Source: a virus (taxonomy: Duplodnaviria; Caudoviricetes). From it: DNA of 57,345 nucleotides. The notes under the pieces are model-generated. The model had not been told where the DNA came from and did no database searches. It was given only the letters and a program-made list of their open reading frames with translations. Position 1 is the stretch's first letter; each line of letters opens with the position of its first letter. This document shows positions 11,627-39,227 of this stretch, piece after piece. Both the position numbers and the translations under genes were made by a program. The DNA lies in the IMG/VR virus record IMGVR_UViG_3300009418_002352, positions 1-57,345 of that record; one strand, written 5' to 3'.

Positions 11627-12520
11627 ATGTACGAACAACTTTGGAAAGAATTGGAAGATACAAAAGAAATTCCTCATCGCTTTAATCGTTTACATATCAT
11701 GCCTTGGTATTGGATCAAAGCAGAAATATTGAATGGGATGGCACATAATATAATAAATAATCTTTATAAAGGTGATGCTTATTTAATTAAAGATGCTTTT
11801 CCTAGAGAATTTATGACTGACTTGATTAGTGATGTACATGACTATTGTACAATTAATGAAGAGTCATTCCATAAAATGCTGGAAGGTACGCCAGACTTTC
11901 ATAGAAGAATAACACCAGAACTTAGTAAGAAATATAGTATAGGTTCTTGTAAGCATTCATGTTATTTTTATCATTGGAATGAAGATCCATTTAGTATCTT
12001 CCCTGATATTAATGCGCGTTGGCGTGTACTCAAATCTCTAATGGGGTTACAGTACAATGAATACGAGGATAATACACCAAAGGATGGAGTAGTAGACCGT
12101 ATTCAAGTAGTAAGATATCCTCCACAGATAGGCTACCTAGAACCCCATGTAGATGCTCATCAACATCAGCGTCTTATTTTTTCAGGCTATATGTCAAAAA
12201 GAGGTGTTCACTATCAAGATGGAGGATTCTACTTAATTAATGGCTCAGATGAAGTAATAAATATTGAAGATCAAATAGATGTAGGAGATATACTATTTTG
12301 TTATGCAAGTGTTTATCATGGTGTTGCTCCCTGTGATTTAGATGTAGAACCAGATTGGACTAAGAAAGATGGTCGATGGTTCTTATCTATGTATAGTAAT
12401 GCTAGTGATGAGTTAGTAGACCATCAAGGTAATCCTTTCCCACCTAGAGCTACTGCTGCTCCCACTAAGCTATATATCCCAGAGGTATTACCTCATTATG
12501 AGCCAAAGACAACAAAGTAG
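11627..12520 (+). CDS. 2-oxoglutarate/Fe(II) oxygenase
   Basis: RYP..GYLEPHVD (HxD), GGFY, GDILF, YHGVAP, GRW. Confidence 0.8.
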   Translation: MYEQLWKELEDTKEIPHRFNRLHIMPWYWIKAEILNGMAHNIINNLYKGDAYLIKDAFPREFMTDLISDVHDYCTINEESFHKMLEGTPDFHRRITPELSKKYSIGSCKHSCYFYHWNEDPFSIFPDINARWRVLKSLMGLQYNEYEDNTPKDGVVDRIQVVRYPPQIGYLEPHVDAHQHQRLIFSGYMSKRGVHYQDGGFYLINGSDEVINIEDQIDVGDILFCYASVYHGVAPCDLDVEPDWTKKDGRWFLSMYSNASDELVDHQGNPFPPRATAAPTKLYIPEVLPHYEPKTTK

Positions 12521-13397
12521 CAGAGGTCAACACAAAAGAGTTAGACAAGGAAGAATGGATCTTGAAGCTACCTTTGCTATACCAGAGGCTAAGAAAGAAA
12601 GAATAAAGGATGGCATATATACTTTATTCGATGATGATTTCCTTCCATCAACCAGGGCAATTAAAGATTGGATACTAGAGTCACATGAAGCATTAGCATC
12701 ATATTGGATGCGCCCATCTAAAAAGGAAGAAGCATTACGCAAGCATGTAGGTTTTATGGATGGCATGAAGTATATGGCAACAATACTTCTATCAGAGTTA
12801 GTAGCAGACCAAGGTAAGTCATTAGAAGAAATGATAATGATAGACTTGGCTCCATTAGTATCAGATAGCATAGAAGGAGAGTAAAATGATTTTAATAGAA
12901 ATTAAAGCCATGCAAAGTAATGAAGTAGAATGTTGTTTAGAATGTCTTTATTTTTGCATAGATACTATTCAAATTGATTGTAAGTGTAGATGCCATCCAC
13001 AAAATCAAGATATTGATTAAGTCTTAAAGTTATGTTAATTGATATAACACAAGATATAAAGGAGGGAAAATATGACCATCCATCTCTATCTTTCTTTTCT
13101 AGAAAGCTATTTGGTAGACGTGTCTTTGCTAAACTCGAAGATTCTGTTCTTTTAGGACATATACAATATACATTTGACAAAGAGAATCAGAATATTATAA
13201 TTTATATCAATTTTGATTTTCGTAAAAACAAGGAACATAGAGAATATGAATCACACAATTTAATCATAAAAGAATATCCATATGAAGATGGAATGGACTT
13301 AGATAAATACCATATCGAAATTAGAAAGGAGATTATTAAAGACAGTCCTCAATCTGAAGGTTTTACTTGGTCATTCTCAGCTAGAGACTTAATATGA
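12498..13397 (+). CDS. Hypothetical ORFs 12498-12884, 12887-13021 (Cys-rich) and 13032-13397
   Basis: Co-oriented packed ORFs. Confidence 0.55.
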
Positions 13398-13840
13398 TAT
13401 ATTATTTTGATAGAAGAGAACAAGACAAGAAAATATTAGAATCTTTACATTTAACTGAAATTGATAAACTTTCCCTCATTAATGATAACCATAACTACTT
13501 AGGTGAGAAGATAGAAAAGCCTTGGGGTTATGAGTACGAAATTTACTCCAGTAATAGTTTATCAATATGGATTTTAAACATTAAAGAAGGTCAATCAACT
13601 TCATTTCATTGCCATCCTAATAAGTTTACGTTATTACATGTTCTAAGTACAGAAACAAGAGTAGTATGTAATGATGCTTTAACTTATCATTTTTTATATA
13701 AAGGAGATCAGGTATTAATAGACAAAGGAGCATTTCATCAAACTACAGCATGTTTGGCTCCAGCAGTGGTTATGGAGATAGAGAGTCCTAATAACAAGAA
13801 CGACTTAATTAGATTCAAGGATAAATATGGGAGAGTCTAA
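13394..13840 (+). CDS. Cupin (mannose-6-phosphate isomerase type II C-terminal-like)
   Basis: EKPWGYE, TSFHCHPNK, GAFH, EIESP, DLIRFKDKYGR. Confidence 0.8.
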   Translation: MIYYFDRREQDKKILESLHLTEIDKLSLINDNHNYLGEKIEKPWGYEYEIYSSNSLSIWILNIKEGQSTSFHCHPNKFTLLHVLSTETRVVCNDALTYHFLYKGDQVLIDKGAFHQTTACLAPAVVMEIESPNNKNDLIRFKDKYGRV

Positions 13841-14084
13841 GATATTATTACAATTAAATTATCAGGCTTTTGATGGAAATATAACCCAAAATGATATTGA
13901 TGGTGCAATAGGAATATGCGATGAAGACTATGGAGGTAATCCTTTAAATCTAAATGAGGATCAACTTAAAGAAATATTTACAACTGATATAGTTATATCA
14001 TGGTTAAAAGAAAATCATTCAGATGAGCAGTGTTGTGCAATTGACGAGATATGTCACATGATTTATAGTGTTCTAAAAGAATAA
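13827..14084 (+). CDS. Hypothetical acidic protein
   Basis: ORF overlapping the cupin stop. Confidence 0.55.
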   Translation: MGESKILLQLNYQAFDGNITQNDIDGAIGICDEDYGGNPLNLNEDQLKEIFTTDIVISWLKENHSDEQCCAIDEICHMIYSVLKE

Positions 14085-14219: not shown

Positions 14220-16130
14220 ATGAGATTAGCAGACTATGTAATCCAATTCCTTGAAGAGTATGGAGTAGAACATATCTTTACAGTATGTGGAGGAGGCTCA
14301 GTATTTCTAAACGATGCACTTGGACAGTCAAAGAAAATAAAATATGTAGCAATGCACCATGAACAAGCAGCGTCAATGGCAGCAGAAGGATATGCTCGTA
14401 TTAAGAATAGCTTGGGAGTTGTTATGGTTACCTCTGGCCCTGGTGGTACTAACTCTATCACTGGTTGTGCTGGTGCTTGGACTGATAACATCCCGCATCT
14501 CACGATTAGTGGGCAAGTTTTTCTAAATCAGACAATTAACGAGCATCCAGGATTAAGAACATTAGGTATACAAGAAATTAATATCATTGATATAGTCAAA
14601 CCTATTACTAAGTATGCAGTGCAAATTAAAGATCCATTAAAAATAAGATATCATTTAGAGAAAGCTCTCTATTTAGCAACTCATGGAAGAAATGGCCCTG
14701 TATGGCTTGATATTCCTGCTAACATACAGAATGCTAACATCAATCCAGAAGCATTAGATAAATGGTTAGGACTTTTAACATATCCGTCCGATGAAGCGAA
14801 TGTACATAAAGCTCTATCAGAACAAGTATCAAGGGTAGTAGAGCTTTTAAAAACATCTAAACGTCCTATCTTTCATATTGGACAAGGTATACGCTTTGCA
14901 GAGGCAGAGGAATACTTTAAGAATTTAGTTGAATACCATAACGTGCCTTTCTTAACAGCAAGAAATGGTAACGATTTATTTAGCTTTGACCATGTTCTTA
15001 ATATAGGTAGACCAGGTACTTTTGCCCAAAGAGGAGCAAACTTTGCAGTACAAACCTCTGATGTTTATATTGCTATAGGAACACGTCTATCTCTAGCACA
15101 AACTGGGTATAATGCCAAGGACTATGCTCGTAATGCTAAAATAGTTATGGTAGATATTGATCAAGCAGAACTAGACAAAGATACTGTTCCTATTGATATT
15201 AAGATTAATGCTGACGCTAAAGACTTCTTGATAGAATTAGACATACAAATGTGTGAAAAAACAGCAACAGTCTGGAGTTACTATGAGTGGTCAGATTGGA
15301 TTAATCAATGCCAAGAATGGAAACTTAAATATCCAGCAATAACAGATGAACAGAGAGAACAAAAGTCATTTGTCAATACATATCACTTTATAGATGTACT
15401 ATCAGACTTATTAGAGCCAGATGATGTTATAGTAACTGACATGGGATTTGCTTTTCAGTGTACTCATCAAGCCTTTAGAAATAAAGAAGGGCAAAGATTA
15501 ATAACTAATTGTGGCCTTGCTTCTATGGGATGGGGATTACCAGCAGCAATTGGAGCAGCTTTTGCTAGTGAAAAACCTTGTCCACATGATAGTGATGGTG
15601 CAGCCTCTGGAAGTTGTCCTTCTTGTTTAGCTATTAGTAAGGCACCACATAATAAGATTAGAGGTAGAGTTATATGTATAGCAGGTGATGGTGGACTTCA
15701 AATGACGATACAGGAAATGGCTACTATTAATCATCATCAACTACCTATTAAGTTATTCGTATTTAACAATGAAGGTTATACTACACTTAAGCAAACATAT
15801 GAACTTGGATTTGAAGGTAGATTAATGGGTGTTAATGAAAGTTCCGGGCTTTCATTTCCTAGTTTTGGACAAATTGCTTCTGCTTATGGGTTTAAACATC
15901 TGATACTAGGAGACCATATAGGATTAAAAGAAATTACAAAAGCAGTTATTGATGAAAGAGGACCAATATTGTGTCAACTGCTAGTAGACCCTGATCAAAG
16001 ACAGATGCCAATGGCTATTAACAGAAGAAATGAAGATGGCAGCTTTAATCCTACTTCAATAGAAGATGCGTGGCCCTTTCTAGACCCTGAAGAAGTTAAA
16101 CAAAATCTGGAAATAGCGAATGGAATGTAG
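14220..16130 (+). CDS. Thiamine-pyrophosphate enzyme, acetolactate synthase superfamily (YerE-like type found in sugar loci)
   Basis: HHEQAASMAAEGYAR, TSGPGGTN, SMGWGLPAAIGA, GDGG...NNEGY TPP motif. Confidence 0.9.
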   Translation: MRLADYVIQFLEEYGVEHIFTVCGGGSVFLNDALGQSKKIKYVAMHHEQAASMAAEGYARIKNSLGVVMVTSGPGGTNSITGCAGAWTDNIPHLTISGQVFLNQTINEHPGLRTLGIQEINIIDIVKPITKYAVQIKDPLKIRYHLEKALYLATHGRNGPVWLDIPANIQNANINPEALDKWLGLLTYPSDEANVHKALSEQVSRVVELLKTSKRPIFHIGQGIRFAEAEEYFKNLVEYHNVPFLTARNGNDLFSFDHVLNIGRPGTFAQRGANFAVQTSDVYIAIGTRLSLAQTGYNAKDYARNAKIVMVDIDQAELDKDTVPIDIKINADAKDFLIELDIQMCEKTATVWSYYEWSDWINQCQEWKLKYPAITDEQREQKSFVNTYHFIDVLSDLLEPDDVIVTDMGFAFQCTHQAFRNKEGQRLITNCGLASMGWGLPAAIGAAFASEKPCPHDSDGAASGSCPSCLAISKAPHNKIRGRVICIAGDGGLQMTIQEMATINHHQLPIKLFVFNNEGYTTLKQTYELGFEGRLMGVNESSGLSFPSFGQIASAYGFKHLILGDHIGLKEITKAVIDERGPILCQLLVDPDQRQMPMAINRRNEDGSFNPTSIEDAWPFLDPEEVKQNLEIANGM

Positions 16131-16237: not shown

Positions 16238-16774
16238 ATGACTAGCGCAATCATAGTAACTGGAGCCCAGGTACAAGATCACGAGTTTATATATCCATAC
16301 TATCGACTACAAGAGGAAGGATATACGGTAGATGTAGCTGTCAGAGGTGGGCAAGAAGTACTTGGATATTATGGAACTAAGATACCTGTGACTTGTGATA
16401 TACCAAATGTTGATGAATTAGATATAAGATCTTATTATGATTTACTTGTCTTGCCTGGTGGAGCTAAGGCAATGGAATATATGAGACAAGACCTTGAAAT
16501 CATAAATTTTATTGCGGAATTCCATGCCCAAGGCGGAATTATAGCAAGTATATGTCATGGGGCACAACTTTTAATCTCTGCTGGACTAGTTAGAAATAAA
16601 GTGATATCAGGTTATTATAGTATAAAAGATGATATTATAAATGCAGGAGGAGTATGGGGTAATGATCCAGTTACTAAGGATGATAGAATAATTACTTCTC
16701 CACATTATAAATACTTAGGTCAGTGGATGAAACAAGTAATTACTGAAATGAATTTTGCTGGAAGAAATTTTTAA
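16238..16774 (+). CDS. DJ-1/PfpI family protein
   Basis: QDHEFIYPYYRLQEEG, LVLPGG, SICHG nucleophile elbow. Confidence 0.9.
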   Translation: MTSAIIVTGAQVQDHEFIYPYYRLQEEGYTVDVAVRGGQEVLGYYGTKIPVTCDIPNVDELDIRSYYDLLVLPGGAKAMEYMRQDLEIINFIAEFHAQGGIIASICHGAQLLISAGLVRNKVISGYYSIKDDIINAGGVWGNDPVTKDDRIITSPHYKYLGQWMKQVITEMNFAGRNF

Positions 16775-17232
16775 TGAAAATTTTATTTGTATGCTATGCT
16801 AACATAGGTAGAAGCCAAGTAGCAGAGGAATACTTTAAACAACTTACTAACCATGTATATGGATTTACAACATGCTCTGCTGGTATAGGAGTTGACCAAC
16901 TAAGTTATCAAAACAATGAAATTAGTTTTAAAGTAGAGGATTCACCTTATCATCGTTCAATAGACTATTGCAAAGAAAAACTTCATATAGATATATCTGA
17001 AAAACTTAAATTGCAATTAAGTATAGATTTATGTAGACATGCTGATAAAGTAATAATGATATGTGAGAAACAACTTTGGCCCAGTTATTTATATGGACAA
17101 GATCATTCTTTTACAGATAAGTTAATCCACTGGAATATACCTGATACACCAGGATTAAGTGATGAAGAGTCTTGGAAGATATGGGATAGTGTAATGATAA
17201 AGACAGAAGAACTAGTACAGGAGATAATATGA
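16774..17232 (+). CDS. Low-molecular-weight phosphatase/ArsC-fold protein
   Basis: ILFVCYANIGRSQVAE (CX5R), SAG, HWNIPD. Confidence 0.85.
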   Translation: MKILFVCYANIGRSQVAEEYFKQLTNHVYGFTTCSAGIGVDQLSYQNNEISFKVEDSPYHRSIDYCKEKLHIDISEKLKLQLSIDLCRHADKVIMICEKQLWPSYLYGQDHSFTDKLIHWNIPDTPGLSDEESWKIWDSVMIKTEELVQEII

Positions 17233-17936
17233 GAGAATTTAATCTACTACAAGACCTCCCACAATCTACAGAACCTCGAATAGTTAGCCCTACTACTAGA
17301 ACAATTAAGAATAGAATTATTGCTTCAGAACGTGAAGGAGAATTCTATGATGGAGATAGAAACAATGGATATGGAGGATATGAGTATGATGGAAGATGGA
17401 ATCCAGTAGCAGGAAGAATCATTAAAGAATATAATATAGAGAATTATGATAATATATTACATGTTGGAAGTGATAAAGGATTTTTGTTGTATGAACTTCA
17501 CAACAGAAATGATACTTTATACTTAAATGGTATAGAAGTATCTGACTATGCTTTTGACCATACTATTGATGAAGCTTATCATGCTATCCGTAAACAAGAT
17601 TCTTTTAGAGAAATCCCATCTATAGATCATGTGTTTGACTTTATAATAGCCATTGGGCCAGTATACTCTCTAAGTCTACCAGATGCTATCAATTTACTAA
17701 AGGAAATACAACGAACAGGAAAGGGTAAGAGCTTTATAACATTAGGTGCATTTGAAACAGAGGAAGAGGAAAGATTATTTAGACAGTGGACTCTATTAGG
17801 TACTACTATACTATCAAAGGATGATTGGAGGGAAGTATTAGAGCATGTAGGTTATACAGGAGACTACTGGTTTAATACAGCTAAAACACTTAATCTTATT
17901 GAAGAGTATGATAGATTGTCAGAACTACATGAATAA
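17229..17936 (+). CDS. Class I SAM-dependent methyltransferase
   Basis: FYDGDRNNGYGGYEYDGRW, ILHVGSDKGFLL, GIEVSDYA. Confidence 0.8.
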   Translation: MREFNLLQDLPQSTEPRIVSPTTRTIKNRIIASEREGEFYDGDRNNGYGGYEYDGRWNPVAGRIIKEYNIENYDNILHVGSDKGFLLYELHNRNDTLYLNGIEVSDYAFDHTIDEAYHAIRKQDSFREIPSIDHVFDFIIAIGPVYSLSLPDAINLLKEIQRTGKGKSFITLGAFETEEEERLFRQWTLLGTTILSKDDWREVLEHVGYTGDYWFNTAKTLNLIEEYDRLSELHE

Positions 17937-18699
17937 TAAGCTAAAAGATAAGAACATCTTAATAACAGGAGCTTCTAGAGGTCTAGGAGCTGTTGCCGCT
18001 GTAGAATTTGCTAAGCAAGGAGCTAAATTAGCATTAATAGCTCGATCTGAAGATAAACTTTATGATGTTAGAATGAAATGTGAAACTCCTTCATTACATA
18101 TAAGTATCTCTGCTGATTTAACAATTGAAGAAGACTTTTTTAGAGCTATGACTGCTGTACAAACATGGTTTGGAGATACAGATGTAGTATTACATTGCTT
18201 AGGAGGTGGACTAGGATACAAAGATTATCTCTTAAATAATATTCAACTAATGGATCTCTTTAACTTAAATATAGGAGTTGCTGCAAGAATTAATAACCAT
18301 ATAGTCCCTGATATGATTGCACAAAAGTCAGGAAATATAGTGCATGTAGGTTCTATAGCTTCAAGTGAAGGAGTAGGTTCTGTAGGATATAATACAGTTA
18401 AATCAGCACTGGCAGGTTATGTTAGAAGTTTAGGAAGAGAGTTAGCACATCACAATGTCATCTGTACCGGAATTCTTCCAGGTGGTTTTATCTCCCCAGG
18501 AAATTCAATGGCTAGACTTGCAGAATCAAATCCAGAAGTATATAATGATTTCATCATCGAAAGGCTTCCAAGGAATAGTATGGGGCAAACCGACGAACTC
18601 CTCCCTATGTTATCCTTACTATGTTCCGAGGATGCATCAATGATGAGTGGATGTATGGTTCCTATAGATGCTGGAGAAGGTAGAGCTTATGCTTTATGA
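17908..18699 (+). CDS. Short-chain dehydrogenase/reductase (start 17908 or 17929)
   Basis: ITGASRGLG, catalytic Ser and YNTVK, PGG, IDAG. Confidence 0.9.
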   Translation: MIDCQNYMNNKLKDKNILITGASRGLGAVAAVEFAKQGAKLALIARSEDKLYDVRMKCETPSLHISISADLTIEEDFFRAMTAVQTWFGDTDVVLHCLGGGLGYKDYLLNNIQLMDLFNLNIGVAARINNHIVPDMIAQKSGNIVHVGSIASSEGVGSVGYNTVKSALAGYVRSLGRELAHHNVICTGILPGGFISPGNSMARLAESNPEVYNDFIIERLPRNSMGQTDELLPMLSLLCSEDASMMSGCMVPIDAGEGRAYAL

Positions 18700-19115: not shown

Positions 19116-19721
19116 ATGGAAGGACAAGAGAGACAGAAATTAATAGATCTTAACTTACTTATTAAGAATTGTACGGATTGCAAACTCTATAAGGTTAGAA
19201 ATAATACTGTTCCAGGCTCTGGCCCTGTACCAGCAGATATAATGTTTATAGGAGAGGGACCAGGTTATAACGAAGATAGAGAAGGAGAACCTTTTAGTGG
19301 CCCATCTGGAAGATTCTTAATGAGATTGCTATCTTCAATAGGACTGACCAGAGCAGAAGTATTTCTAGCAAATATGATTAAATGTAGAGCGCCAGGTGAT
19401 AGAGATCCTCAAGTGGATGAGATATTAGAATGCAGTAAATATTTAGATAGACAAATAGAGTTAGTTGACCCTAAGTTAATCGTCACTCTAGGTAGATACT
19501 CAACATCTAAATTCTTAAAGTTTAGTAATATGACAGACGTTAGAGGTCAAGTGAAAGAGTTAAACGGGAGGTACATTCTTCCTATCATGCATCCTGCTGC
19601 TGCTCTTCGTAATATTAGATTTGAAGAACCAATAAGAGAGGACTTTAAGTTAATACCAAGGATAATGGAACTACCTAAACTAAAAGTAGTACAACCTACA
19701 AAACAAATGGAGCTATTCTAA
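19116..19721 (+). CDS. udg: Uracil-DNA glycosylase, family 4 (Fe-S)
   Basis: CTDCKL, MFIGEGPG, PFSGPSG, KCR, HPAAALR. Confidence 0.92.
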   Translation: MEGQERQKLIDLNLLIKNCTDCKLYKVRNNTVPGSGPVPADIMFIGEGPGYNEDREGEPFSGPSGRFLMRLLSSIGLTRAEVFLANMIKCRAPGDRDPQVDEILECSKYLDRQIELVDPKLIVTLGRYSTSKFLKFSNMTDVRGQVKELNGRYILPIMHPAAALRNIRFEEPIREDFKLIPRIMELPKLKVVQPTKQMELF

Positions 19722-20392
19722 TGACTGAACGTGACCCAAAATATGATTTTATACATCAATACTTAATAGATATTTCTAATCTTGCTTTATCTATTTCTCA
19801 TAATGAATTAGAAATGATGGTAGATAGCTTGGTTAACCTTCGAAACAGAGAAGGAAGATTATTTTGTATAGGAGTAGGAGGTGGAGCAGCTAATGCGTCA
19901 CATGCTGTTAATGACTTTAGAAAGATATGTAATATAGAAGCTTATGCTCCTACAGACAATGTAGCAGAGTTGACTGCTCGTACTAACGATGAAGGATGGG
20001 ATACTATCTTTGAAGAGTGGTTACGTGTTAGTAAGATAAATTGGAAGGATGGAATATTTGTTTTCTCTGTAGGAGGTGGTGATTTACTTAATAAAGTAAG
20101 TGTTCCTATATGTAATGCTTTTAATACTGATAAACACCCTTTGATACTTGGAATTGTAGGACGTGATGGAGGTGAGACAAAACGTCAAGGTGATAGAGTA
20201 ATAGTAATTCCAACATTTAATGAGGATTTAGTAACAGCATATACAGAGTCATTCCAAATCATACTTTTACATGCTATAGTATTTCATCCTAAGTTAATGG
20301 TTAATAAAGGTAAATGGGAGAGTATAGAAAAACAATCGCCTTGTCCATTTTGTGGAAAAGATTTTTGTATGGAGAGACATTATGAACATTAA
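19721..20392 (+). CDS. SIS-domain sugar-phosphate isomerase (GmhA/LmbN-like)
   Basis: GVGGGAANASHAVNDFRK, LTARTNDEG, FSVGGG, GRDGG, TESFQ. Confidence 0.85.
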   Translation: MTERDPKYDFIHQYLIDISNLALSISHNELEMMVDSLVNLRNREGRLFCIGVGGGAANASHAVNDFRKICNIEAYAPTDNVAELTARTNDEGWDTIFEEWLRVSKINWKDGIFVFSVGGGDLLNKVSVPICNAFNTDKHPLILGIVGRDGGETKRQGDRVIVIPTFNEDLVTAYTESFQIILLHAIVFHPKLMVNKGKWESIEKQSPCPFCGKDFCMERHYEH

Positions 20393-21083: not shown

Positions 21084-21094
21084 CTATAAATTCA

Positions 21095-21145: not shown

Positions 21146-21159
21146 TTTCAGGGAGTACA

Positions 21160-23113: not shown

Positions 23114-23120
23114 AGAAATA

Positions 23121-28550: not shown

Positions 28551-28553
28551 GTT

Positions 28554-30251: not shown

Positions 30252-31177
30252 TGACAACCGAGAAAAAGATTTTCAAACCTAGTAGAGTAATAACACCACT
30301 ATCAGACGAATTAAAATCTAAGCACAAAATTCAATCAACTGGAGAAAGACCAAAATTTGCTAGGCTACTTTTATCAGCACTTGGTGGACAAGGTAAAACA
30401 ACTATTATTGGTACAGCATCACGTAGAGTATTTATAAATGATGAGTGGACATTACCTTATAACAATGTCCTGCTTATCGAATATGACCCGGATGGAGACG
30501 ATACCATTGTGGCTATGGGAGCAGAAGTAGATAGAATACAGTCTCCTAGCGAGAAAGAATTAATAGATGTTCTAAGATTTGCTGCAACTAGCAGAGAAGC
30601 AGAACAATATGATGTAGTTGCTTTAGATGCATATAATAGGTTACAAGATATAGAAATTGATACTGTTCTTCCAGTAGGAGCATCACTAAGTGCTCAAAGA
30701 AAAAGACCAAGAATAGATACAGAAACTATGGAGATACAAGACTATCAGAGGTTAAATAAAAGATGTAGAATAATTAATGACCATATTCATGCTATAAAGA
30801 AACATATAATAGTAACTTGTATTATGGGATTTAAAGACCATCCATTAGATATGGATAAAAAGAAGGAGGATAGAAAACAAATAACATCATTAGCATTAGA
30901 TGGTAAAACTGCTCACTTGTTATCTACACAATTCTCATTGCATGGGATAATGACAAAAGAAGGTGGAGGTGTTAACCAAACCGTTAAAACAGTCTTTAGT
31001 CAGTATAACTCAGAAGCTAAGACTAGATTTAGAATGGAGCATGATTGTACAAATATAACATTCCCAGAGATCTTAGAAATGATTGGTATTAATGACCCTA
31101 ACTTTAACAAGATACAATGGGTACAGGATTATAAGGGATTCTTGCCACATATAGTAGGTAGAAATGGAACCAGTTAA
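30251..31177 (+). CDS. Sak4-like P-loop ATPase (AAA_24)
   Basis: GGQGKTT, YDVVALD, AKTR; coupled to the exonuclease. Confidence 0.7.
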   Translation: MTTEKKIFKPSRVITPLSDELKSKHKIQSTGERPKFARLLLSALGGQGKTTIIGTASRRVFINDEWTLPYNNVLLIEYDPDGDDTIVAMGAEVDRIQSPSEKELIDVLRFAATSREAEQYDVVALDAYNRLQDIEIDTVLPVGASLSAQRKRPRIDTETMEIQDYQRLNKRCRIINDHIHAIKKHIIVTCIMGFKDHPLDMDKKKEDRKQITSLALDGKTAHLLSTQFSLHGIMTKEGGGVNQTVKTVFSQYNSEAKTRFRMEHDCTNITFPEILEMIGINDPNFNKIQWVQDYKGFLPHIVGRNGTS

Positions 31178-31767
31178 AGCATATCACTGGATAACATCAT
31201 ACTTAGAAGATAATAGTCCTTTAATTTGTGATTGGAAATGTACTATATGTAGAGAAATAGTATTGTGTAACAGTATATCAGATTATTGGAAAATTGAAGA
31301 ACATAGAAAAAGATGTTTGGATAAACCTATGACAGATTCTAAAGCAAGAAGTATATTAGAAAGAAAATGTGCAGCTTTGAATTGCTGGCATAGAACTTTA
31401 AGAGGTTATATTTATTGTTCTCATTGCCTATATAGAGGATGTTCAACAATAAAAGAGGAGGATAGACCACAAATCATAGAAGCTATGAAAATATTAAATG
31501 TTTAATTGGTTTTTAAGATTTCATCCAAGGAGATTTATTAATATGAGTGAAGTTCCAAGTGTATTTCATCAAGGCAAATCTAGTGATTTAACACAAGACA
31601 ATGCCAGAATAAAATGGTGCATGGAAGAAGCTAGATGTAAGAATTGCAAAAGTTTAGTTACTATGCAAATACTAGCTGGCGACAAACCTTGCATGTCTAA
31701 ATGTATGGTTTGTGATGAAGTATATCTCTATACTGAAAATGACTTGAAGGAGTTACATTTGATATAA
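31164..31767 (+). CDS. Two Cys-rich zinc-finger ORFs (31164-31505, 31498-31767)
   Basis: Multiple CxxC motifs. Confidence 0.6.
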
Positions 31768-32477
31768 TGAATCCTTTAATGGATATCTCGGGCAGTGAGC
31801 CTTCACTATTAAAGACTAAGTTAAGTGATATATCTATAGTTAAGAACGATATGATATATCCAGACTACAAGATTTATTCAAAGCAAGGTTATACAGTTGG
31901 AATTGCTAGAGGTAGGATTAATGACATAGTATCTAATAAGCTAGATGTAGCATCACATATAGCAGAAGAATTAAAAGATTGCAACACTGACATTAAAATA
32001 TTCCTATCTGAAGATTGGATGGGAATGGACCACAGAGGAAAGATTTCTTTGCCAGGAGGTATAAGACGTAACTGGCCTTATACTCTAGTTGTGAATACTA
32101 TAATGATAGCATGTATAGCTAATGGAGCTATTTGGGTTCCGTCTGCTTCTTTAAATGCTACAGCAGAGCTACTAAGGTTATGGAACAATGAAGTGTTTCA
32201 GAGAGAAGAACATCAGTCACTAAAGATTAGACCAAGACCAGTTGATACTTCATTTGAGTTCACATTAGACGAAGAAGAAATGAGATTGAATGATAAGATT
32301 CATTGGCTTGCTCAAATGCCAGGATTACAGTTTGGGCAAAAGAGAGCAACATCATTAATGGAAGCATCTGGAGGTATACTATTATCTGCGTTTATTAAGA
32401 CTAGGGAAGAATTAGCAGATGTGCCAAGTATAGGAAAGGACATAGCAAACAAATTTAGATTATTCTTAGATAGATAA
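31767..32477 (+). CDS. ERCC4/XPF-like nuclease-fold protein with HhH tail
   Basis: PDY motif and HhH signatures LAQMPGLQFGQKRA and LADVPSIGKDIA; ERK motif degenerate. Confidence 0.6.
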   Translation: MNPLMDISGSEPSLLKTKLSDISIVKNDMIYPDYKIYSKQGYTVGIARGRINDIVSNKLDVASHIAEELKDCNTDIKIFLSEDWMGMDHRGKISLPGGIRRNWPYTLVVNTIMIACIANGAIWVPSASLNATAELLRLWNNEVFQREEHQSLKIRPRPVDTSFEFTLDEEEMRLNDKIHWLAQMPGLQFGQKRATSLMEASGGILLSAFIKTREELADVPSIGKDIANKFRLFLDR

Positions 32478-32720
32478 ATGAAAACAAAAGAAATAGGTAA
32501 TATAGAAACTTCAAATCTTATTTGGGAATATAAATGTGTATGTGACTTCTTATTTTTTATTACAGGAAATAAACCTTTAGACTGCATGAAAGCATATTTA
32601 GTATGTCCTTAATGTGAAAGTATGTGGGGATGGCAACCTACAGGTATAGTAGTATTTTATGACTCAAAAGACCATTTAGTTAAAGATTATAAAGAAATAA
32701 TGGAGAATTATGACAACTGA
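32478..32720 (+). pseudogene. Zinc-ribbon ORF interrupted by in-frame TAA (32610-32612)
   Basis: MKTKEIG...CVC...VCP*CESMWGW...ENYDN exactly fills the gap before nrdJ. Confidence 0.55.
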
Positions 32721-35067
32721 ACTAACTAAGATAGATTTTTCAGATAATGCTAGGAAAGTTCTAGAACTTAGATTTCTTTCTGAAGGTGAGACTGCTGAAG
32801 AAAGAATGTGGGATATGTGCGAATATGTGGCTAGTGCAGAAGTATCTTATAATTTTAATAAGACAGGAAGCTTTTTAAATCAAACTGAGCAAAGAGCAGA
32901 GAATATAAGAACTTGGACTGAAAGATTTTATAACGAACTAATAGTTCCAAAGAAGTTCTTTCCTAACTCTCCTACTATAAAGAATGCTGGTTCTAAAGCT
33001 AAGAAAGGTGGCCTACAAGGTTGTAATGTAATCTCACCAGAAGATACTATGGAGTCTATTTATCAGACAGTTAAAGATTGGGCATTAACAGAAAAGTATG
33101 GAGCAGGTATTGGTGCATACTTTGGAGACATACGTGCTAAAGGTTCTCCAATAGGAACTACACATGGCAAAGCTCTTGGTCCTATAGCAGTAATGAAGAT
33201 TCTATCTGAATCATCTAAGTGGATAACCCAAGGTGCATTTAGAGAAGGAGCCCATATGGCTATCCTTCCTATTGACCATCCAGATATTTTAGAGTTTATT
33301 CATTGCAAAGATGAGTGTAAACTTCCATCTGATATGTTAGCTAACTTTAATATTTCTATACAGATGCCTGATTGGTTTATGGAAAGTCTTACTCAAGGAG
33401 CTTCTATAGTAGACAATGAAGGAAGTAAGTATTTAGTAGATGTTTCGGCAATATGGGAAGAGATATGTGAGTCAGCTTGGAAAACTGGAGACCCAGGGTT
33501 ATTCTTTATAGATAGAATTAGAGAGACAGAACCTAATCCTCAACTTGGATTGATACAATCTCCTAATCCATGTGGGGAGCAACCTCTAGAGAATTATAAT
33601 TCATGTAATTTAGGTTCTATAAACTTAGGAAAGTTTGTATTACCTATACATGAAGAGAAGATAAACAATAATGGAATAGCTTGGAATGAACTTAGAGAAA
33701 CAATTCATCTAGCAGTTAGATTCTTAGATGATGTAATTGATGTAAATACCTTTCCAGAAGATGTACCGCAACTCCAGGAAATGAATCAAAAGACTAGACG
33801 TATTGGTCTTGGAGTTATGGGATGGCATGATATGTTAGTTAAATTGGAAATACCTTATGAATCAGCAGCAGCTATTGACTTAGCCATACAGGTGTCTGAA
33901 TTTCTAACTAAAGAAGCATGGGTAGCTTCACATGATTTAGCAGAAGAAAAAGGAGAGTTTCCAGAGTGGGCCAACTCAAGAATTGGTAGAGGCACATCAC
34001 TTTCAAAACTAGAAATTGAACAAGGAAAACACTTCAGTCTGAAAACTAGAAATTCTTGTGTAACTACAGTTGCTCCTACTGGAACACTTAATATACTAGC
34101 GGGGTGCTCTAGTGGTATTGAACCATATCATAGTCTATATACAGAACGTAAAGCTTTATGGAGCCAAGGTGAAGCTCAATCTACTATCATTGAAGTTCCA
34201 CAAGCAGTTATAGAATATATGCAAAATCAAATGCCTAGAATAGAATTAAAAGATCTTCAAGATCAAGATTTATTCAAGACCGCCTTAGAGATTTCTCCTA
34301 AATGGCATATTGAACATCAAGCAGCTTGGCAAACACATATTAGTAATGGCATTAGCAAGACTATTAACCTGCCTAATGATGCAACAGTAGAAGATATATC
34401 TAAAGCATATATACTAGCTTGGAAATCTAAATGTAAAGGTGCTACTATATATCGTGATGGTAGCAAAGACGTACAAGTATTAAATCTATCAGAACAAGCT
34501 GCTCGAAAAATGGGACATGACGAGGGTGCTACTTTAGATTCAAGGATTAATAATCTCTTTACTAATAATGAAACAGTTATACACCCAATAGAAAGACCTC
34601 AATCTGTAGAGGGAGTTACAGATAAAATACTTACTGGTCATGGTAAAGTATATGTTACCGTTAATAAATTAAATGGAACTCCTATAGAGGTATTTTGCAA
34701 TGGAGGAACAGCAGGAGGATGTGATAGTGCCAATACAGAAGCAATAACAAAACTTATATCTCTTTGCTTACGTTCTAAGGTAGACCCTATGGAAGTAGTA
34801 GAACAACTTAGAAATATAACTTGTTGTCCTATATGGGATAATGGCTTTCATATAATGTCATTACCAGACGCTATATCAAAAGTACTACATGATCATATAG
34901 AAAATAAACTAATAAAAACTATCAGGTACACTGGGAATGGTGAGAAAGCACAATTTATACCGGGATTCAAGTTAGATGCAACTCCTTGTTATAATTGCGG
35001 GGGAAAGCTTATTCATTCTCAGGGATGTGTAGAATGTCAATCTTGTGGTTGGAATAAGTGCGATTAA
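32710..35067 (+). CDS. nrdJ: Class II (adenosylcobalamin) ribonucleotide reductase
   Basis: FPNSPT, NPCGEQ, SCNLGSINL, RRIGLG, APTGT, SKTINLP, YRDGS, C-terminal TSCPD-like and zinc-ribbon domains; no small subunit nearby. Confidence 0.92.
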   Translation: MTTELTKIDFSDNARKVLELRFLSEGETAEERMWDMCEYVASAEVSYNFNKTGSFLNQTEQRAENIRTWTERFYNELIVPKKFFPNSPTIKNAGSKAKKGGLQGCNVISPEDTMESIYQTVKDWALTEKYGAGIGAYFGDIRAKGSPIGTTHGKALGPIAVMKILSESSKWITQGAFREGAHMAILPIDHPDILEFIHCKDECKLPSDMLANFNISIQMPDWFMESLTQGASIVDNEGSKYLVDVSAIWEEICESAWKTGDPGLFFIDRIRETEPNPQLGLIQSPNPCGEQPLENYNSCNLGSINLGKFVLPIHEEKINNNGIAWNELRETIHLAVRFLDDVIDVNTFPEDVPQLQEMNQKTRRIGLGVMGWHDMLVKLEIPYESAAAIDLAIQVSEFLTKEAWVASHDLAEEKGEFPEWANSRIGRGTSLSKLEIEQGKHFSLKTRNSCVTTVAPTGTLNILAGCSSGIEPYHSLYTERKALWSQGEAQSTIIEVPQAVIEYMQNQMPRIELKDLQDQDLFKTALEISPKWHIEHQAAWQTHISNGISKTINLPNDATVEDISKAYILAWKSKCKGATIYRDGSKDVQVLNLSEQAARKMGHDEGATLDSRINNLFTNNETVIHPIERPQSVEGVTDKILTGHGKVYVTVNKLNGTPIEVFCNGGTAGGCDSANTEAITKLISLCLRSKVDPMEVVEQLRNITCCPIWDNGFHIMSLPDAISKVLHDHIENKLIKTIRYTGNGEKAQFIPGFKLDATPCYNCGGKLIHSQGCVECQSCGWNKCD

Positions 35068-35068
35068 T

Positions 35069-35446
35069 ATGAAAGTTATAGACCCAGGACATATGTATAA
35101 GGTAGATATGTTAGATGGTTACTTAAATGACCCATCAAACTTTCTAGTATTTGTAAAACGTAATAACCCACCAGAAAAGTATCCAGGAAATCTTAATTCT
35201 TATCCAGGAACCACCATACAGGAAGTTTTAAGAGCTTTAATAAACAGAATTAAATACCTACAAAATCAGAAAGGATGTGAAGAAGATGTAATATTATTAA
35301 ACATATTCAGAGAGGGTATTCTTCTATTAGAACAAAGGAATGCTCGAGAAAAAGGAAGAGGTTTATTGGTTCCAACTGATATCGTTATAGAAGATATTCC
35401 CACTTGTCCAGAATGCCTACATATAGGTTGTCAAGAGCATGACTAA
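35069..35446 (+). CDS. Acb2/Tad1-like helical-hairpin protein
   Basis: GHMY...FVKR...PGTTIQEVLRALINRIKYLQ...C.E...LLEQR pattern. Confidence 0.5.
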   Translation: MKVIDPGHMYKVDMLDGYLNDPSNFLVFVKRNNPPEKYPGNLNSYPGTTIQEVLRALINRIKYLQNQKGCEEDVILLNIFREGILLLEQRNAREKGRGLLVPTDIVIEDIPTCPECLHIGCQEHD

Positions 35447-36968
35447 TGACTACAAACGTAAGATTAAGACAATAGAAGAATTAAAGGAAATAATAGGTGG
35501 ACGACCTAGAGTTAGAAAAGTAATAATGTGTCATGGTACTTTTGACTTAGTACATCCTGGACATATACGTCATTTAATGTATGCTAAGAATAAAGCAGAT
35601 ATATTAATAGTAAGTTTAACTGGTGATGCATTTATTACTAAAGCAGACTATAGACCTTTTGTTCCATCAGAACTTAGAGCAATGAACTTAGCAGCACTTG
35701 AAGTGGTAGACTATGTAATTACAGATGAGTCTCCTACACCTGAAGAAAACATTATTACTCTACAACCAGATTATTTTGCTAAAGGATATGAGTACTCAGA
35801 TGATAATAATGTATTAAATCAAATAGAAAGAGCAGCTATTGAATCATATAATGGTGAGATGATTTATACTCCTGGTGATGTAGTATACTCTTCATCTAAT
35901 ATTATTAATAAAAATCCACCGAACTTGTCAGTTGAAAAGCTACATGTACTAATGGAGTCTAATAGTATAAGTTTTGATGACTTAAAGTATTGTATTAAAG
36001 ATTTTACAGACTTAAGAGTACATGTACTTGGTGATACCATAGTAGATACTTATATTTACTGCAATCTTATATCTAGTGGTATGAGTAAGAATCCTAATAT
36101 AAGTGTTGCACATGAACATGAAGAGAACTTTATTGGTGGTGCAGCAATAGTAGCTAAACATCTCAAAGCTGCTGGTGCAGATGTTAAGTTCTCTACAGTT
36201 ACAGGTGATGATGATTTAGGTTCTTGGGTGACAGGAGAGATATGTGGTAATGGAATAGGTTTTCAATGCTCTATAGATAGAGATAGAGTGACCACACAAA
36301 AACAAGTATATATAACTAATGGGTATAGATTACTTAAAGTAGACAAAGTTGATAATCGTCCTATATCTCAAAGAATCATAGACAGGTTTAGTGAATCTTT
36401 AAGTTGGACAAAACCAGACGCTTATATATTTAGTGACTTTAGACATGGCATATTCAATAGAGATACTATCCCTAAATTAATAGATTGTCTACCAGAGCAT
36501 GGTTTAAGAGTAGCTGACAGTCAAGTAGCTAGTAGATGGGGTAACATTCTAGAATTCAAAGGGTTTGATTTAATTACACCTAATGAAAGAGAAGCACGGT
36601 TTGCATTGGCGGATCAAGATTCAGTAATAAGACCTTTAGCATTAGAATTATTTAAGCAAGCTCAATGTAAAACATTAATACTAAAGCTTGGTAGTAAAGG
36701 AACTTTGACTTATAGATACCCTAATGATGCATCTGGTTCATTCTTTAGTCTAGATACATTTGCTGACAATGTAGTGGATTCTATAGGAGCAGGTGATGCG
36801 TTACTAGCTTATAGTACATTAGCTCTGACATTAAGTCCTAGTGCTCAAGTTATAGCATCTATATTAGGTTCTATGGCTGCTGCTATAGCTTGTGAGACAG
36901 AAGGAAATAATCCAGTTAAGCCAGAAGATGTTATTAAAAAGTTAGAAAGGATTGAACAAAGTTTATGA
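35439..36968 (+). CDS. Bifunctional nucleotidyltransferase / PfkB sugar kinase (HldE-like, reversed domain order)
   Basis: N-terminal GTFDLVHPGH; C-terminal GGAA, SDF, TPNEREAR, DSIGAGD. Confidence 0.9.
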   Translation: MTNDYKRKIKTIEELKEIIGGRPRVRKVIMCHGTFDLVHPGHIRHLMYAKNKADILIVSLTGDAFITKADYRPFVPSELRAMNLAALEVVDYVITDESPTPEENIITLQPDYFAKGYEYSDDNNVLNQIERAAIESYNGEMIYTPGDVVYSSSNIINKNPPNLSVEKLHVLMESNSISFDDLKYCIKDFTDLRVHVLGDTIVDTYIYCNLISSGMSKNPNISVAHEHEENFIGGAAIVAKHLKAAGADVKFSTVTGDDDLGSWVTGEICGNGIGFQCSIDRDRVTTQKQVYITNGYRLLKVDKVDNRPISQRIIDRFSESLSWTKPDAYIFSDFRHGIFNRDTIPKLIDCLPEHGLRVADSQVASRWGNILEFKGFDLITPNEREARFALADQDSVIRPLALELFKQAQCKTLILKLGSKGTLTYRYPNDASGSFFSLDTFADNVVDSIGAGDALLAYSTLALTLSPSAQVIASILGSMAAAIACETEGNNPVKPEDVIKKLERIEQSL

Positions 36969-37092
36969 GAATGCCATTTCTTTTTATAATAATGTTAACT
37001 TTCTTTCCATTAATAATATTATACGAAATACATAAAGACTTAAGTAATATTAAGAAAGGTAAAAGTAAATCATTTATTGTAGGAGGTAATTA

Positions 37093-37983
37093 ATGAGAAC
37101 AATTATAGTTGGACTAGGTAATCAAGGTAAAAAGCATAGAGATATAATAGATAATGATTTAGTAGGAATAGTAGACCCAATATACCCACTAGCTTTAGAT
37201 AGTATAAAAGATGCTTCATTAGACCACTATGATGCTGCTATAGTCTGTACCCCTAACCAAGAAAAACAAGAAATTATAAAATATCTTTTATCTAATAAAA
37301 AGCATGTAATGGTTGAAAAACCATTAATAGGTACGGCAGTAGAGTTAGAGATATTACGTCAATTACAGATTAAAAACGAAGTAGCTTTACAAACAGCTTA
37401 TTGTTATAGATTTGAGCCTCTTGTAATAAAATTAAAAGAGTTAATAGATAATGGTATTCTAGGAGAGATATACCTTGTAAGGATATTCCTTGGTAATGGA
37501 ACAGCTATAAACGTAAAAAACTCTCCATGGAGAGATCGAAGCAGAGGTGTATTAGAAGAAATTAGCTCTCATCAATTTGACCTTGTAAACTATCTATTTG
37601 ATAGAAAGGATATAACTTTTCCTTATATAGTTGCAGGTATGTTAGAAAACAAGGCATTTGACCATGTTATATTACATTCAGAAGGACTTCCACATATTTC
37701 TATAGAGTCAACATATTGCTATTGGAAGAATACTTTCACTATAGATGTTACAGGAGAACTAGGAAGTGCTCATGTTAATGGATTACTAAAATGGGGATGG
37801 AGTCATTTAACTACTAGAAAGAGGATATTCCCAAGTGGAGTACCAGAGGAACAGTATTACTTTTTAGATTCTCCAGACCCAACTTTAACACTACAGTATG
37901 AACACTTTAAAGAACTATGTAAGACTGGTGGAACTAATATAGAGACTGATATTTGGATTAACAATATATTTAACGAGGTTTAA
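37093..37983 (+). CDS. Gfo/Idh/MocA oxidoreductase (LmbZ-like)
   Basis: IVGLGNQG, VCTP, HVMVEKP, WR, H..D. Confidence 0.88.
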   Translation: MRTIIVGLGNQGKKHRDIIDNDLVGIVDPIYPLALDSIKDASLDHYDAAIVCTPNQEKQEIIKYLLSNKKHVMVEKPLIGTAVELEILRQLQIKNEVALQTAYCYRFEPLVIKLKELIDNGILGEIYLVRIFLGNGTAINVKNSPWRDRSRGVLEEISSHQFDLVNYLFDRKDITFPYIVAGMLENKAFDHVILHSEGLPHISIESTYCYWKNTFTIDVTGELGSAHVNGLLKWGWSHLTTRKRIFPSGVPEEQYYFLDSPDPTLTLQYEHFKELCKTGGTNIETDIWINNIFNEV

Positions 37984-37985
37984 GT

Positions 37986-39227
37986 ATGGATATAGGAACT
38001 ATAGGATTTGTCGGACTTAATCACTTAGGTATAGTATCTGCTATCACGACAGCTTTTAAAGGACACTCAGTTTGGGGATACGATTCTAATGAAAGTTTAA
38101 TAAATGACTTACAAAATAAGCGTTTTCCGTTTTATGAACCAGACTTAGAAAATCTATACGAGGAAGTAAAATACAGTATTGATTGGACTATACATCCTGA
38201 GATACTTAAAGAATGTAAGTTAATATTTATTACAATAGATACACCTACAAATGAACAAAATGAAAGTAATTATGACCTTATATTTTCATACTTAGATTTA
38301 ATTACTAATCATATATCACATGAAACTGTTATAGTTATATCAAGTCAAGTATATCCAGGATTTACTCGTAGTTTATTGGGTCAATACCATAATCCTATAT
38401 TCTATCAACCAGAGTTCTTAGTAGTTGGTAATGCTATGGAGTTATCTTGTAATCCAATACAAGTTACAGTAGGATGTGAAGATAAAAATGAACCTTTGCC
38501 AGTTGTATACAAAGAGTATCTAAGTAACTTCGAAACATATGAAACACAAATGATTAGAAAAGTATCTTACGAATCTGCCGAAATGGCAAAGATAGCCACA
38601 AATATATATTTAGCTGCACAAGTATCTACTACAAACGTTTTAGCAGAGGTTTGTGAAAAAGTAAAATCAGATTGGAGAGAAGTAAAATCTATTATAGAAA
38701 ATGATAGTAGAATAGGTTCTTATATTAATCCAGGATTAGGAATATCTGGTGGACATTTAGAAAGAGACATGTATACCATTGAAAAGTTATCTGAACATAT
38801 AGAGTTTGATTTATTATATAGAAAAGATTGGGTTAATAACTTAATCCATTTATATGGACAGAATTTAACAGTTGCCATATGGGGGCTAACTTATAAGCCT
38901 AATACTAATTCAATGAAGAATTCTCAAGCATTACATACTTTAGGTTATCTAAAAACTCTTACTGGAATTAAGATTAAAACTTATGACCCTTATAATATTG
39001 TAACATGGCAACCTTGTCATTCTTGTAACTCACCAGAAGAGGCTTCACACAATGCAGATATACTATGTATCTTAACAGCAGACAAACAATACTCTGAACT
39101 AAGTTTAGAAAATCTTACGGAACATATGAAAGGTGGTATCATAATAGACCCATACGGTATGCTTAATCATGAAGAGTGTATTGAAATGGGATTTAAACAC
39201 TTTCAATTAGGAGTACCAAATGAGTAG
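37986..39227 (+). CDS. NDP-sugar dehydrogenase-like protein lacking the catalytic Cys (LmbL-like)
   Basis: YEPDL, IDTP, PEFL, ESAEMAK, DSRIG, GLTYKP; GGHLERD in place of GGxCLPKD. Confidence 0.85.
   Translation: MDIGTIGFVGLNHLGIVSAITTAFKGHSVWGYDSNESLINDLQNKRFPFYEPDLENLYEEVKYSIDWTIHPEILKECKLIFITIDTPTNEQNESNYDLIFSYLDLITNHISHETVIVISSQVYPGFTRSLLGQYHNPIFYQPEFLVVGNAMELSCNPIQVTVGCEDKNEPLPVVYKEYLSNFETYETQMIRKVSYESAEMAKIATNIYLAAQVSTTNVLAEVCEKVKSDWREVKSIIENDSRIGSYINPGLGISGGHLERDMYTIEKLSEHIEFDLLYRKDWVNNLIHLYGQNLTVAIWGLTYKPNTNSMKNSQALHTLGYLKTLTGIKIKTYDPYNIVTWQPCHSCNSPEEASHNADILCILTADKQYSELSLENLTEHMKGGIIIDPYGMLNHEECIEMGFKHFQLGVPNE

Follow-up and report, generated by a model that had tools for sequence, protein, structure and literature searches.

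The phage genome fragment held as IMG/VR record IMGVR_UViG_3300009418_002352 (Duplodnaviria; Caudoviricetes) carries a series of sugar genes, among them a transaldolase, a sugar-phosphate isomerase and a nucleotidyltransferase-kinase fusion. We consider it probable that these genes are a pared-down and rearranged copy of a conserved bacterial surface-glycan operon. They are a coherent set and no chance collection, and the evidence supports a pathway for an activated higher-carbon sugar, probably branched and methylated; the individual chemical steps, the carbon number and the destination of the sugar we infer.

The window analysed here is the whole stretch of 57,345 nucleotides. It contains 66 open reading frames (ORFs), 39 of which were scanned with Pfam for the sugar-gene check (49 ORFs were scanned in total). 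The record is classed as 'linear' and its CheckV completeness is 61%, leaving 39% of the phage genome outside the window. The GC content is 0.33-0.40 over the whole window, and the coding strand switches near 39.3 kb. The minus-strand part encodes a tape-measure protein, a tail-tube protein and a protease-capsid fusion. The plus-strand part encodes a uracil-DNA glycosylase (UDG), a helicase, a split ThyX, a DNA methylase, a dCTP-deaminase-like protein, a PD-(D/E)XK nuclease and a class II-like ribonucleotide reductase (RNR), with a weak Pfam match to DUF1599 ('nucleotide modification') among its ORFs. No match was obtained when the INPHARED phages were searched at the DNA level with positions 32710-39227, and so no cultured phage is alike at that level. 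The sugar genes are the following:

11627-12520, plus strand: 2-oxoglutarate (2OG)-Fe(II) oxygenase-like protein, a probable tailoring hydroxylase given as a lead only (Atlas fold match).
13394-13840, plus strand: small cupin, a candidate of the sugar epimerase/ketoisomerase type (sub-threshold Pfam match and operon orthologs).
14220-16130, plus strand: YerE/JanthE-like thiamine-diphosphate (ThDP or TPP) carboligase, a candidate for adding a carbon branch (TPP_enzyme N, M and C domains, E 6e-33 to 4e-28).
16238-16774, plus strand: DJ-1/PfpI family protein, pathway role unassigned (Pfam, 1.5e-36).
16774-17232, plus strand: low-molecular-weight (LMW) phosphatase/ArsC-fold protein (LMWPc, 4.7e-10; CX5RS motif intact).
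17229-17936, plus strand: S-adenosylmethionine-dependent methyltransferase (Methyltransf_25, E 0.007, weak).
17899-18699, plus strand: classical short-chain dehydrogenase/reductase (SDR), a candidate ketoreductase (adh_short, 2.3e-29).
19721-20392, plus strand: divergent GmhA-like SIS sugar-phosphate isomerase (NCBIfam and PDB; no Pfam match).
20352-21083, plus strand: transaldolase of the TIGR02134 type (TAL_FSA, 1e-37; likely true start ATG at 20382).
35439-36968, plus strand: fusion of a nucleotidyltransferase (N-terminal) and a PfkB kinase (C-terminal), the reverse of the HldE order (CTP_transf_like 31-156, PfkB 195-491).
37093-37983, plus strand: Gfo/Idh/MocA oxidoreductase (Pfam; EKP motif present).
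37986-39227, plus strand: nucleoside diphosphate (NDP)-sugar dehydrogenase-like protein, Cys-less, with His254 in its place (UDPG_MGDP_dh N, central and C domains).

An earlier note, made from the DNA letters alone, had listed these enzymes with the exception of the LMW phosphatase, which it overlooked, and had assigned them to a single higher-carbon nucleotide-sugar pathway. Its list stands to differing degrees: the TPP enzyme, DJ-1, SDR, transaldolase, fusion, Gfo and dehydrogenase-like proteins have strong Pfam matches, the cupin and methyltransferase weak ones, the SIS protein is weak by library scores, and the 2OG assignment is a fold lead only. The note had also described sugar genes as coupled to phage genes. 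By coordinates this is so, the stop of the UDG gene (19116-19721) overlapping the start of the SIS gene, and the RNR gene, ORF 35045-35446 and the fusion overlapping in series. The 'Acb2-like' label that the note gave to ORF 35045-35446 fared less well: the resemblance to Acb2/Tad1 amounts to a feature score of 0.78, and Pfam and PHROGs give nothing.

The bacterial counterpart was traced through the fusion. A scan of one genome per prokaryote species yielded 461 candidate stretches, 424 of which were confirmed, and the best 80 of these 424 matches were examined with up to 10 kb of flank each, together with 10 viral loci. The 80 loci come from about 15 phyla (Verrucomicrobiota, Acidobacteriota, Planctomycetota, Omnitrophota and about ten others). 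Ten of the 66 window ORFs match anything within 10 kb of the fusion in these 90 loci, and nine of the ten are sugar genes; the tenth, an AAA ATPase ORF, has a single match. The Gfo gene is present in 78 of the 80 bacterial loci (42-51% identity) and always lies next to the fusion, and the dehydrogenase-like gene is present in 73. The operon isomerase is 45-59% identical to the phage SIS protein (48/80 loci) and the operon transaldolase about 52% identical to the phage enzyme (46/80), both genes occurring together in 43 loci; methyltransferase orthologs (31-38% identity) are found in 40/80 and also in L005, L006, L096, L100 and L101, contigs that we come to below. For 48 loci, at least 8 kb of sequence is available on either side of the fusion (hereafter full-flank loci). 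The counts there are 48 for Gfo, 47 for the dehydrogenase-like gene, 34 each for SIS and the methyltransferase, 33 for the transaldolase, 7 for TPP, 3 for the cupin and 2 for the SDR, with none for DJ-1, the LMW phosphatase or the 2OG-like gene. The single pathway proposed in the earlier note is thus borne out to the extent that its genes occur together, as an operon, both in bacteria and in further phage contigs.

Homologs of the fusion with the same reversed order number in the thousands in the database; the 120 listed are 60-76% identical, about 515 aa long and carry the same two domains in all cases. Identity of the phage fusion is 58-66% to the bacterial homologs from our loci and 75% to a metagenome contig (L095), and its HxGH and GAGD motifs are invariant columns of the homolog alignment. 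In the bacterial operon, the typical order is SIS, GmhB-like HAD phosphatase, TIGR02134 transaldolase, two extended SDRs and fusion, continuing with Gfo, dehydrogenase-like gene, extended SDR, NUDIX and a further extended SDR, and ending with a split transketolase or E1 alpha/beta pair and one or two methyltransferases. Variable companions are DegT aminotransferases, YerE-like TPP enzymes, GT2 glycosyltransferases and ABC-2 (Wzm/Wzt-type) exporters, and the company of these exporters, GT2 and DegT genes gives it the appearance of a modular operon belonging to envelope polysaccharide loci. The operon has a fixed core, to which exchangeable ThDP, methyl, amino and reductase tailoring genes are added. 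The phage retains two stretches of its order, SIS-transaldolase (adjacent and overlapping in the window) and fusion-Gfo-dehydrogenase-like.

The dehydrogenase-like protein had been described in the earlier note as lacking the family's cysteine, and the alignment confirms it. The protein has all three domains of the UDP-glucose/GDP-mannose 6-dehydrogenases and scores 100 bits against solved UDP-glucose dehydrogenases (UGDHs), but the UGDH catalytic motif GGSCFPKD (4a7p, 3gg2) aligns to SGGHLERD in the phage protein, with His in place of Cys. The same column in 74 aligned family rows is Asn in 62, His in 4 and Cys in none (8 rows are poorly aligned), and in seven sister clusters, which carry a variant gene set, it is Thr in 7/7 and Cys in 0/7. 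The catalytic Cys is accordingly replaced by His in phages and by Asn or Thr in bacteria. A further difference from UGDHs is the first glycine-rich motif, GL[SNT]HLG. Without the thiol, an enzyme of the UGDH fold has no access to the classical route by which a uronic acid is formed in two oxidation steps via a thiohemiacetal. Since a single oxidation of a secondary C6 alcohol does not require the Cys, oxidation of this kind on a heptose or octose would be the natural alternative.

The TPP enzyme points to a branch in the carbon chain. Its best PDB match is JanthE (8rph; 391 bits, E 6e-116), compared to about 225 bits for acetolactate synthases, and it falls below the acetolactate synthase equivalog cut-offs (365 vs. 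538). A YerE-like character, as suggested in the earlier note, is indicated by the match to JanthE, but 5ahk, which we take to be a YerE homolog, scores only 220 bits. The phage enzyme is 62% identical to a gene in one operon locus (L047), and such genes occur in 8 of the 80 bacterial loci and in L098, L100 and L101. Passages of the literature describe JanthE as a YerE-like enzyme that couples 2-oxoacids to ketones, with no known physiological substrate (PMC12188165), and YerE and the AviB1/AviB2-type E1 pairs as attaching two-carbon branches to keto-sugars (PMC4753412). At one and the same position, bacterial operons carry a YerE-like enzyme in some cases and an E1 alpha/beta or split-transketolase pair in others, which argues for a carbon branch. 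The phage enzyme differs from JanthE in having the usual GDG motif instead of CDG.

The remaining tailoring genes are tied to the operon mainly through L100, a low-GC (about 0.26) marine contig obtained by a scan of JGI metagenomes. In L100, a single cluster contains relatives of the window's DJ-1 (56% identity, directly upstream of the SIS gene), fusion (51%), SIS (42%), SDR (42%, beside the methyltransferase), cupin (41%), transaldolase (41%), TPP enzyme (38%), methyltransferase (36%), 2OG-like (32%), dehydrogenase-like (31%) and Gfo (30%) proteins, in addition to a HAD gene, two extended SDRs and two DegT genes without window counterpart. Two further contigs, L101 and L102, carry parts of this set, including the 2OG-like gene. 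The SDR also has a 34%-identical relative in L084 and is found in 2/80 bacterial loci, and the cupin has full-length matches of 43-46% identity in the operon loci L035, L043 and L047. Every gene on the earlier note's list is therefore linked to the operon core in some locus; the LMW phosphatase is not. Just upstream of the L100 cluster (482-2254) lie a NeuB-family gene and a second, canonical SIS_2 isomerase, suggesting a large envelope-sugar island in this contig.

By published description, the closest characterised relative is the cbu0678 region of Coxiella burnetii, the agent of Q fever. CBU0678 is presented there as a bifunctional kinase/adenylyltransferase with an 'unconventional, reversed domain arrangement', unknown in function and essential for full-length (phase I) lipopolysaccharide/O-antigen; cbu0674 (phosphoheptose isomerase) and cbu0676/cbu0677 (epimerase/dehydratases) precede it, and a separate normal HldE serves the inner core (passages of PMC5843353). 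Sections of a 2026 review and a 2026 preprint still call the role of cbu0678 unclear and infer its acquisition from Alphaproteobacteria (PMC13552124, PMC13252051). The 80 bacterial loci share with this region the reversed fusion and the isomerase and two epimerase/dehydratase genes upstream, and they too include Alphaproteobacteria (L073, L074, L076). The phage version differs in being divided into three blocks and in being without the epimerase/dehydratase and HAD genes. The families of cbu0675, cbu0679 and cbu0680 are not stated in the Coxiella literature searched.

The transaldolase bears on the length of the sugar chain. It has the VKIP lysine motif and does not group with housekeeping TalC, a grouping that would have spoken against the earlier note: it passes the TIGR02134 model (310.4 bits vs. 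a cut-off of 281.95), fails the TalC/FSA model (93.9 vs. 245.95) and sits beside the isomerase. Each of five operon genomes has a single TIGR02134 gene, the one in the operon; of 14 control genomes, none reaches the cut-off. Among 121 evenly drawn Verrucomicrobiota genomes, the gene is present in 12 and adjoins an operon-type SIS gene in 12/12. So strict a pairing suggests that the isomerase acts on the product of the transaldolase, as it does in the lincosamide octose route, and speaks for a transaldolase dedicated to chain building. An exclusive link of the transaldolase to genomes with the fusion was considered and rejected, as only one of the 12 has the fusion and the other 11 have a sister cluster. 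In these 11 Verrucomicrobiota genomes (L104-L114) the transaldolase-SIS pair is accompanied by distant Gfo and Cys-less (Thr) dehydrogenase-like genes, and in L107 the sister cluster has a GHMP HddA-like kinase and an HddC-like NTP_transferase-type nucleotidyltransferase instead of the reversed fusion.

The best placed alternative takes the lincosamide comparison strictly. The transaldolase would be LmbR-like, converting ribose-5-phosphate to octulose-8-phosphate, the SIS protein would correspond to LmbN, and the dehydrogenase-like/Gfo pair to LmbL/LmbZ, performing a C6/C8 dehydration to give an NDP-octose derivative. The lincosamide sugar genes tabulated in Table 2 of PMC4351081 comprise a transaldolase, isomerase, kinase, phosphatase, nucleotidyltransferase, epimerase, dehydrogenase, oxidoreductase and aminotransferase. 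The entries of that table, together with passages of PMC12945683 on LmbR/N/P/K/O/M/L/Z/S, give the same list of activities as here, with the aminotransferase in part of the bacterial loci (DegT genes are found in 18/80 bacterial and 2/10 viral loci, and twice in L100). A dedicated transaldolase, tied to the isomerase in every sampled genome that has it, would be hard to explain were the substrate the common metabolite sedoheptulose-7-phosphate. The SIS protein and the fusion score far below the GmhA/HldE equivalog cut-offs (29 vs. 209, 129 vs. 345 and 90 vs. 181.5): SIS has 28.9 bits to NCBIfam gmhA (TIGR00441; cut-off 209.45) and matches phosphoheptose isomerases in the PDB at E 1.4e-6, its ortholog in bacterial locus L014 has 45 bits to TIGR00441, and the fusion has rfaE domain II at residues 24-158 and domain I at 186-502, each below cut-off, and 146 vs. 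521 for the full HldE model PRK11316. The presence of a second, canonical SIS_2 in L100, the normal HldE that Coxiella burnetii keeps besides CBU0678 (passages of PMC5843353) and the GHMP and NTP_transferase enzymes of the variant clusters likewise speak for the octose.

Against this, the kinase, nucleotidyltransferase, phosphatase and isomerase all have heptose enzymes as their nearest solved or curated relatives, and the parts of the Coxiella lipopolysaccharide literature examined name no octose except Kdo. The parallel with LmbR, LmbN, LmbL and LmbZ is plausible and is one of enzyme-family composition, the roles of LmbL and LmbZ being taken in part from reviews. There are also differences from the lincosamide pathway: the kinase is here a PfkB enzyme fused to an HldE-type nucleotidyltransferase; the setting is polysaccharide loci of many phyla and phages, not an antibiotic cluster; and ThDP, methyltransferase, cupin and DJ-1 genes are present in addition. 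We hold the strict lincosamide-type octose to be possible though somewhat unlikely. The narrower choice of C8 over C7 can be made only tentatively, with some doubt, and a sugar of at least eight carbons in both phage and operon, arising by transaldolase extension, isomerase/kinase/nucleotidyltransferase activation, side-chain rework by the Cys-less/Gfo pair and a ThDP branch, is likewise a prospect on the doubtful side.

The pathway that we propose for the pared-down operon would begin with the transaldolase making a ketose phosphate, either sedoheptulose-7-phosphate (C7) or octulose-8-phosphate (C8), which the GmhA-like SIS isomerase would turn into the aldose phosphate. The PfkB half of the fusion would then phosphorylate C1. 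The distal phosphate would be removed by a host GmhB-type phosphatase, by an enzyme encoded on the remaining 39% of the genome, or possibly by the phage LMW phosphatase, a candidate substitute for the missing GmhB-type enzyme, before the NDP-sugar is formed by the cytidylyltransferase-like half of the fusion. Oxidation or rearrangement of the exocyclic side chain would fall to the Cys-less dehydrogenase-like enzyme together with Gfo/Idh/MocA, the YerE/JanthE-like ThDP enzyme would put a carbon branch on a keto group, and the SDR, methyltransferase, cupin and 2OG-like oxygenase would tailor the product. During infection, the product would most likely enter polysaccharide synthesis for the host envelope, so that the surface glycan is altered or maintained; a host that bears the operon may supply what is missing, or the remaining genes may lie elsewhere in the phage genome.

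Several observations weigh against a copied surface-glycan pathway. No glycosyltransferase, flippase, exporter or other sugar sink was found in the 49 window ORFs with Pfam or with the GT2 profile, which is why the destination of the sugar is drawn from the bacterial context. The operon's HAD phosphatase, extended SDRs, NUDIX and aminotransferases are not in the window either (no tblastn match at E<=1e-3, no six-frame profile match at E<=1), in agreement with the earlier note, which had seen neither an epimerase nor a HAD phosphatase; on window evidence the pathway is therefore incomplete. For the LMW phosphatase, none of the related loci, whether the 80 bacterial, the viral or the metagenome ones, offers a counterpart, and DJ-1 and the 2OG-like gene, found in 0/80 bacterial loci, are tied to the operon only via three marine contigs (DJ-1 in one). 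The cupin (Cupin_2, 19.8 bits vs. a cut-off of 27.2; MannoseP_isomer C-terminal, 19.8 bits, also below cut-off), methyltransferase and SIS proteins are weak by curated cut-offs, and are rescued by their orthologs inside the bacterial operon. The 2OG-like protein has no Pfam, PHROG or PDB sequence match; what it has is a language-model/structure lead (TM 0.87 to Fe2OG-dioxygenase clusters in the Atlas) and an HxD...H visible in the sequence, and it, too, is rescued, by relatives of 32-38% identity that adjoin the operon in L100, L101 and L102. The likeness to the Coxiella region is drawn from published descriptions and not from sequence, and no RNA run is listed among the sequencing runs that hold the region.

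A sugar made for the virus itself, for virion-protein glycosylation or DNA hypermodification and not for the host envelope, would fit the interleaving of the sugar genes with those for UDG, ThyX, the dCTP-deaminase-like protein, DNA methylase and RNR, the weak DUF1599 match and the window's want of a host-type envelope glycosyltransferase. We think this unlikely: no DNA or protein glycosyltransferase was found in the window either, more than a third of the genome (39%) lies outside it, and the bacterial operon sits with ABC-2 exporters and GT2, pointing to envelope polysaccharide.

More doubtful still is an ordinary viral module for ADP/NDP-D-glycero-D-manno-heptose, accompanied by a transaldolase that boosts the pentose phosphate pathway and by unconnected auxiliary genes. 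Transaldolase is a known cyanophage gene, and cyanophage records carry HldE-like nucleotidyltransferases. Viral NDP-heptose enzymes without the phosphatase are on record, according to a commentary (PMC11461863) on Tang et al. 2024, and a HAD-type phosphatase is absent from our window as well. The isomerase, kinase and nucleotidyltransferase domains are, moreover, homologous to those of the canonical ADP-heptose pathway (GmhA, HldE, GmhB, HldD). However, the domain order of the fusion is reversed, the scores lie far under the equivalog cut-offs, and the window, from a genome 61% complete, has no GmhB or HldD match. The supposedly unconnected genes are obligate or frequent partners of the fusion: Gfo accompanies it in 48/48, the dehydrogenase-like gene in 47/48 and the methyltransferase in 34/48 full-flank loci, the transaldolase is a dedicated one, and all of these genes but the LMW phosphatase recur in the one cluster of L100.

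The sugar genes are residents of the phage, and they look domesticated, as the earlier note had judged. They form three separate blocks between phage genes, and positions 19500-39400 are covered by Logan contigs from four further marine runs, with 0-3 differences in each of the pieces listed. The SIS-transaldolase-helicase stretch is spanned by one piece in 4/4 runs, and the RNR end, the small ORF and the fusion start by pieces in two. Half or more of the sampled words are present in at least 14 runs, although these may be one campaign and four of them may be the source. In L095, a metagenome contig of 3.3 kb, RNR (63%), fusion (75%) and the start of Gfo follow in the same order. An assembly chimera or host contamination joining bacterial sugar genes to a phage contig, for which one could cite the metagenome origin and bacterial homologs of 50-66% identity, is very improbable given that the sugar/phage junctions are crossed in four other runs, that GC is an even 0.33-0.37 across the region, and that the genes are dispersed in blocks with the RNR-fusion junction repeated in L095. 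The 133-aa ORF 35045-35446 (plus strand) between RNR and fusion is missing in L095, where the fusion match begins 12 bases after the RNR match.

In a tree of 108 fusion rows, from which loci with a match of <450 residues or with a stop were left out, the window, L095 and eight database proteins form a phage-only clade (SH-aLRT 99), which is nested in a group of Bipolaricaulota, Acidobacteriota and Planctomycetota. The marine contigs and five other viral contigs are placed elsewhere, in a clade that also has proteobacterial sequences; its long branches (L002-L004, L097) leave the inner order unsure. Two of its viral records, L005 (G004) and L004 (G003), have the large-terminase gene Terminase_6N. 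From these two separate clades with viral members it follows that the operon entered phages at least twice; in the window's lineage it was retained and rearranged. The IMG/VR contigs L005, L004, L002 and L006 have compact versions of the operon; those of L005, L006 and L002 have a dehydrogenase-like ORF of just 220-229 aa as called, and no matched Gfo. Single-protein scans of viral contigs with the fusion and with the helicase found no relatives. A scan with the capsid protein gave three (L092-L094; 78-82% identity), on contigs of 10-17 kb that are too short to reach the sugar genes.

Some other features of the window were also observed. ThyX (25284-26141, plus strand) is one reading frame broken by a single in-frame TGA at 25620-25622, at what we take to be the second Arg of the conserved RHR motif, and none of the four other marine runs has a differing letter there. 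Global recoding of TGA was rejected as an explanation, since TGA terminates 10 other ORFs; the split gene may be a pseudogene, a case of local read-through, or something else. In the tail region, ORFs 48085-48984 and 48971-49954 (minus strand) are adjacent paralogs of each other, and a further copy lies upstream of the capsid gene in L092-L094 (28-37% identity). The 723-aa ORF 54848-57019 (minus strand), the one that is 78-82% identical in these three viral contigs, matches both head-maturation-protease and major-head-protein PHROGs and so looks like a fused protease-capsid gene. A 270-aa ORF without Pfam match (8974-9786, plus strand) has a DGQHR motif, presumably reminiscent of ParB/sulfiredoxin-type nucleases. 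Ten ORFs of unknown function gave no match to PHROGs.

Phage-borne nucleotide-sugar genes are already known; the present set is a ten-to-twelve-gene version of an operon of unsolved chemistry, and in the limited set of literature searched we found no paper describing this operon in a phage. It is widespread, with its 424 confirmed matches among species-representative genomes, and is present in at least two phage lineages. If the sugar does have at least eight carbons, a chemistry known only from the lincosamide antibiotics would be a common, virus-carried route to envelope sugars, and the part played by the reversed HldE gene, on which a pathogen's O-antigen depends, would be explained. The homologs from phages and environmental bacteria provide material in which the operon's sugar could be worked out, and the solved sugar would also make clear why about 9 kb of a lytic-looking marine phage is given over to a sugar of the host envelope.

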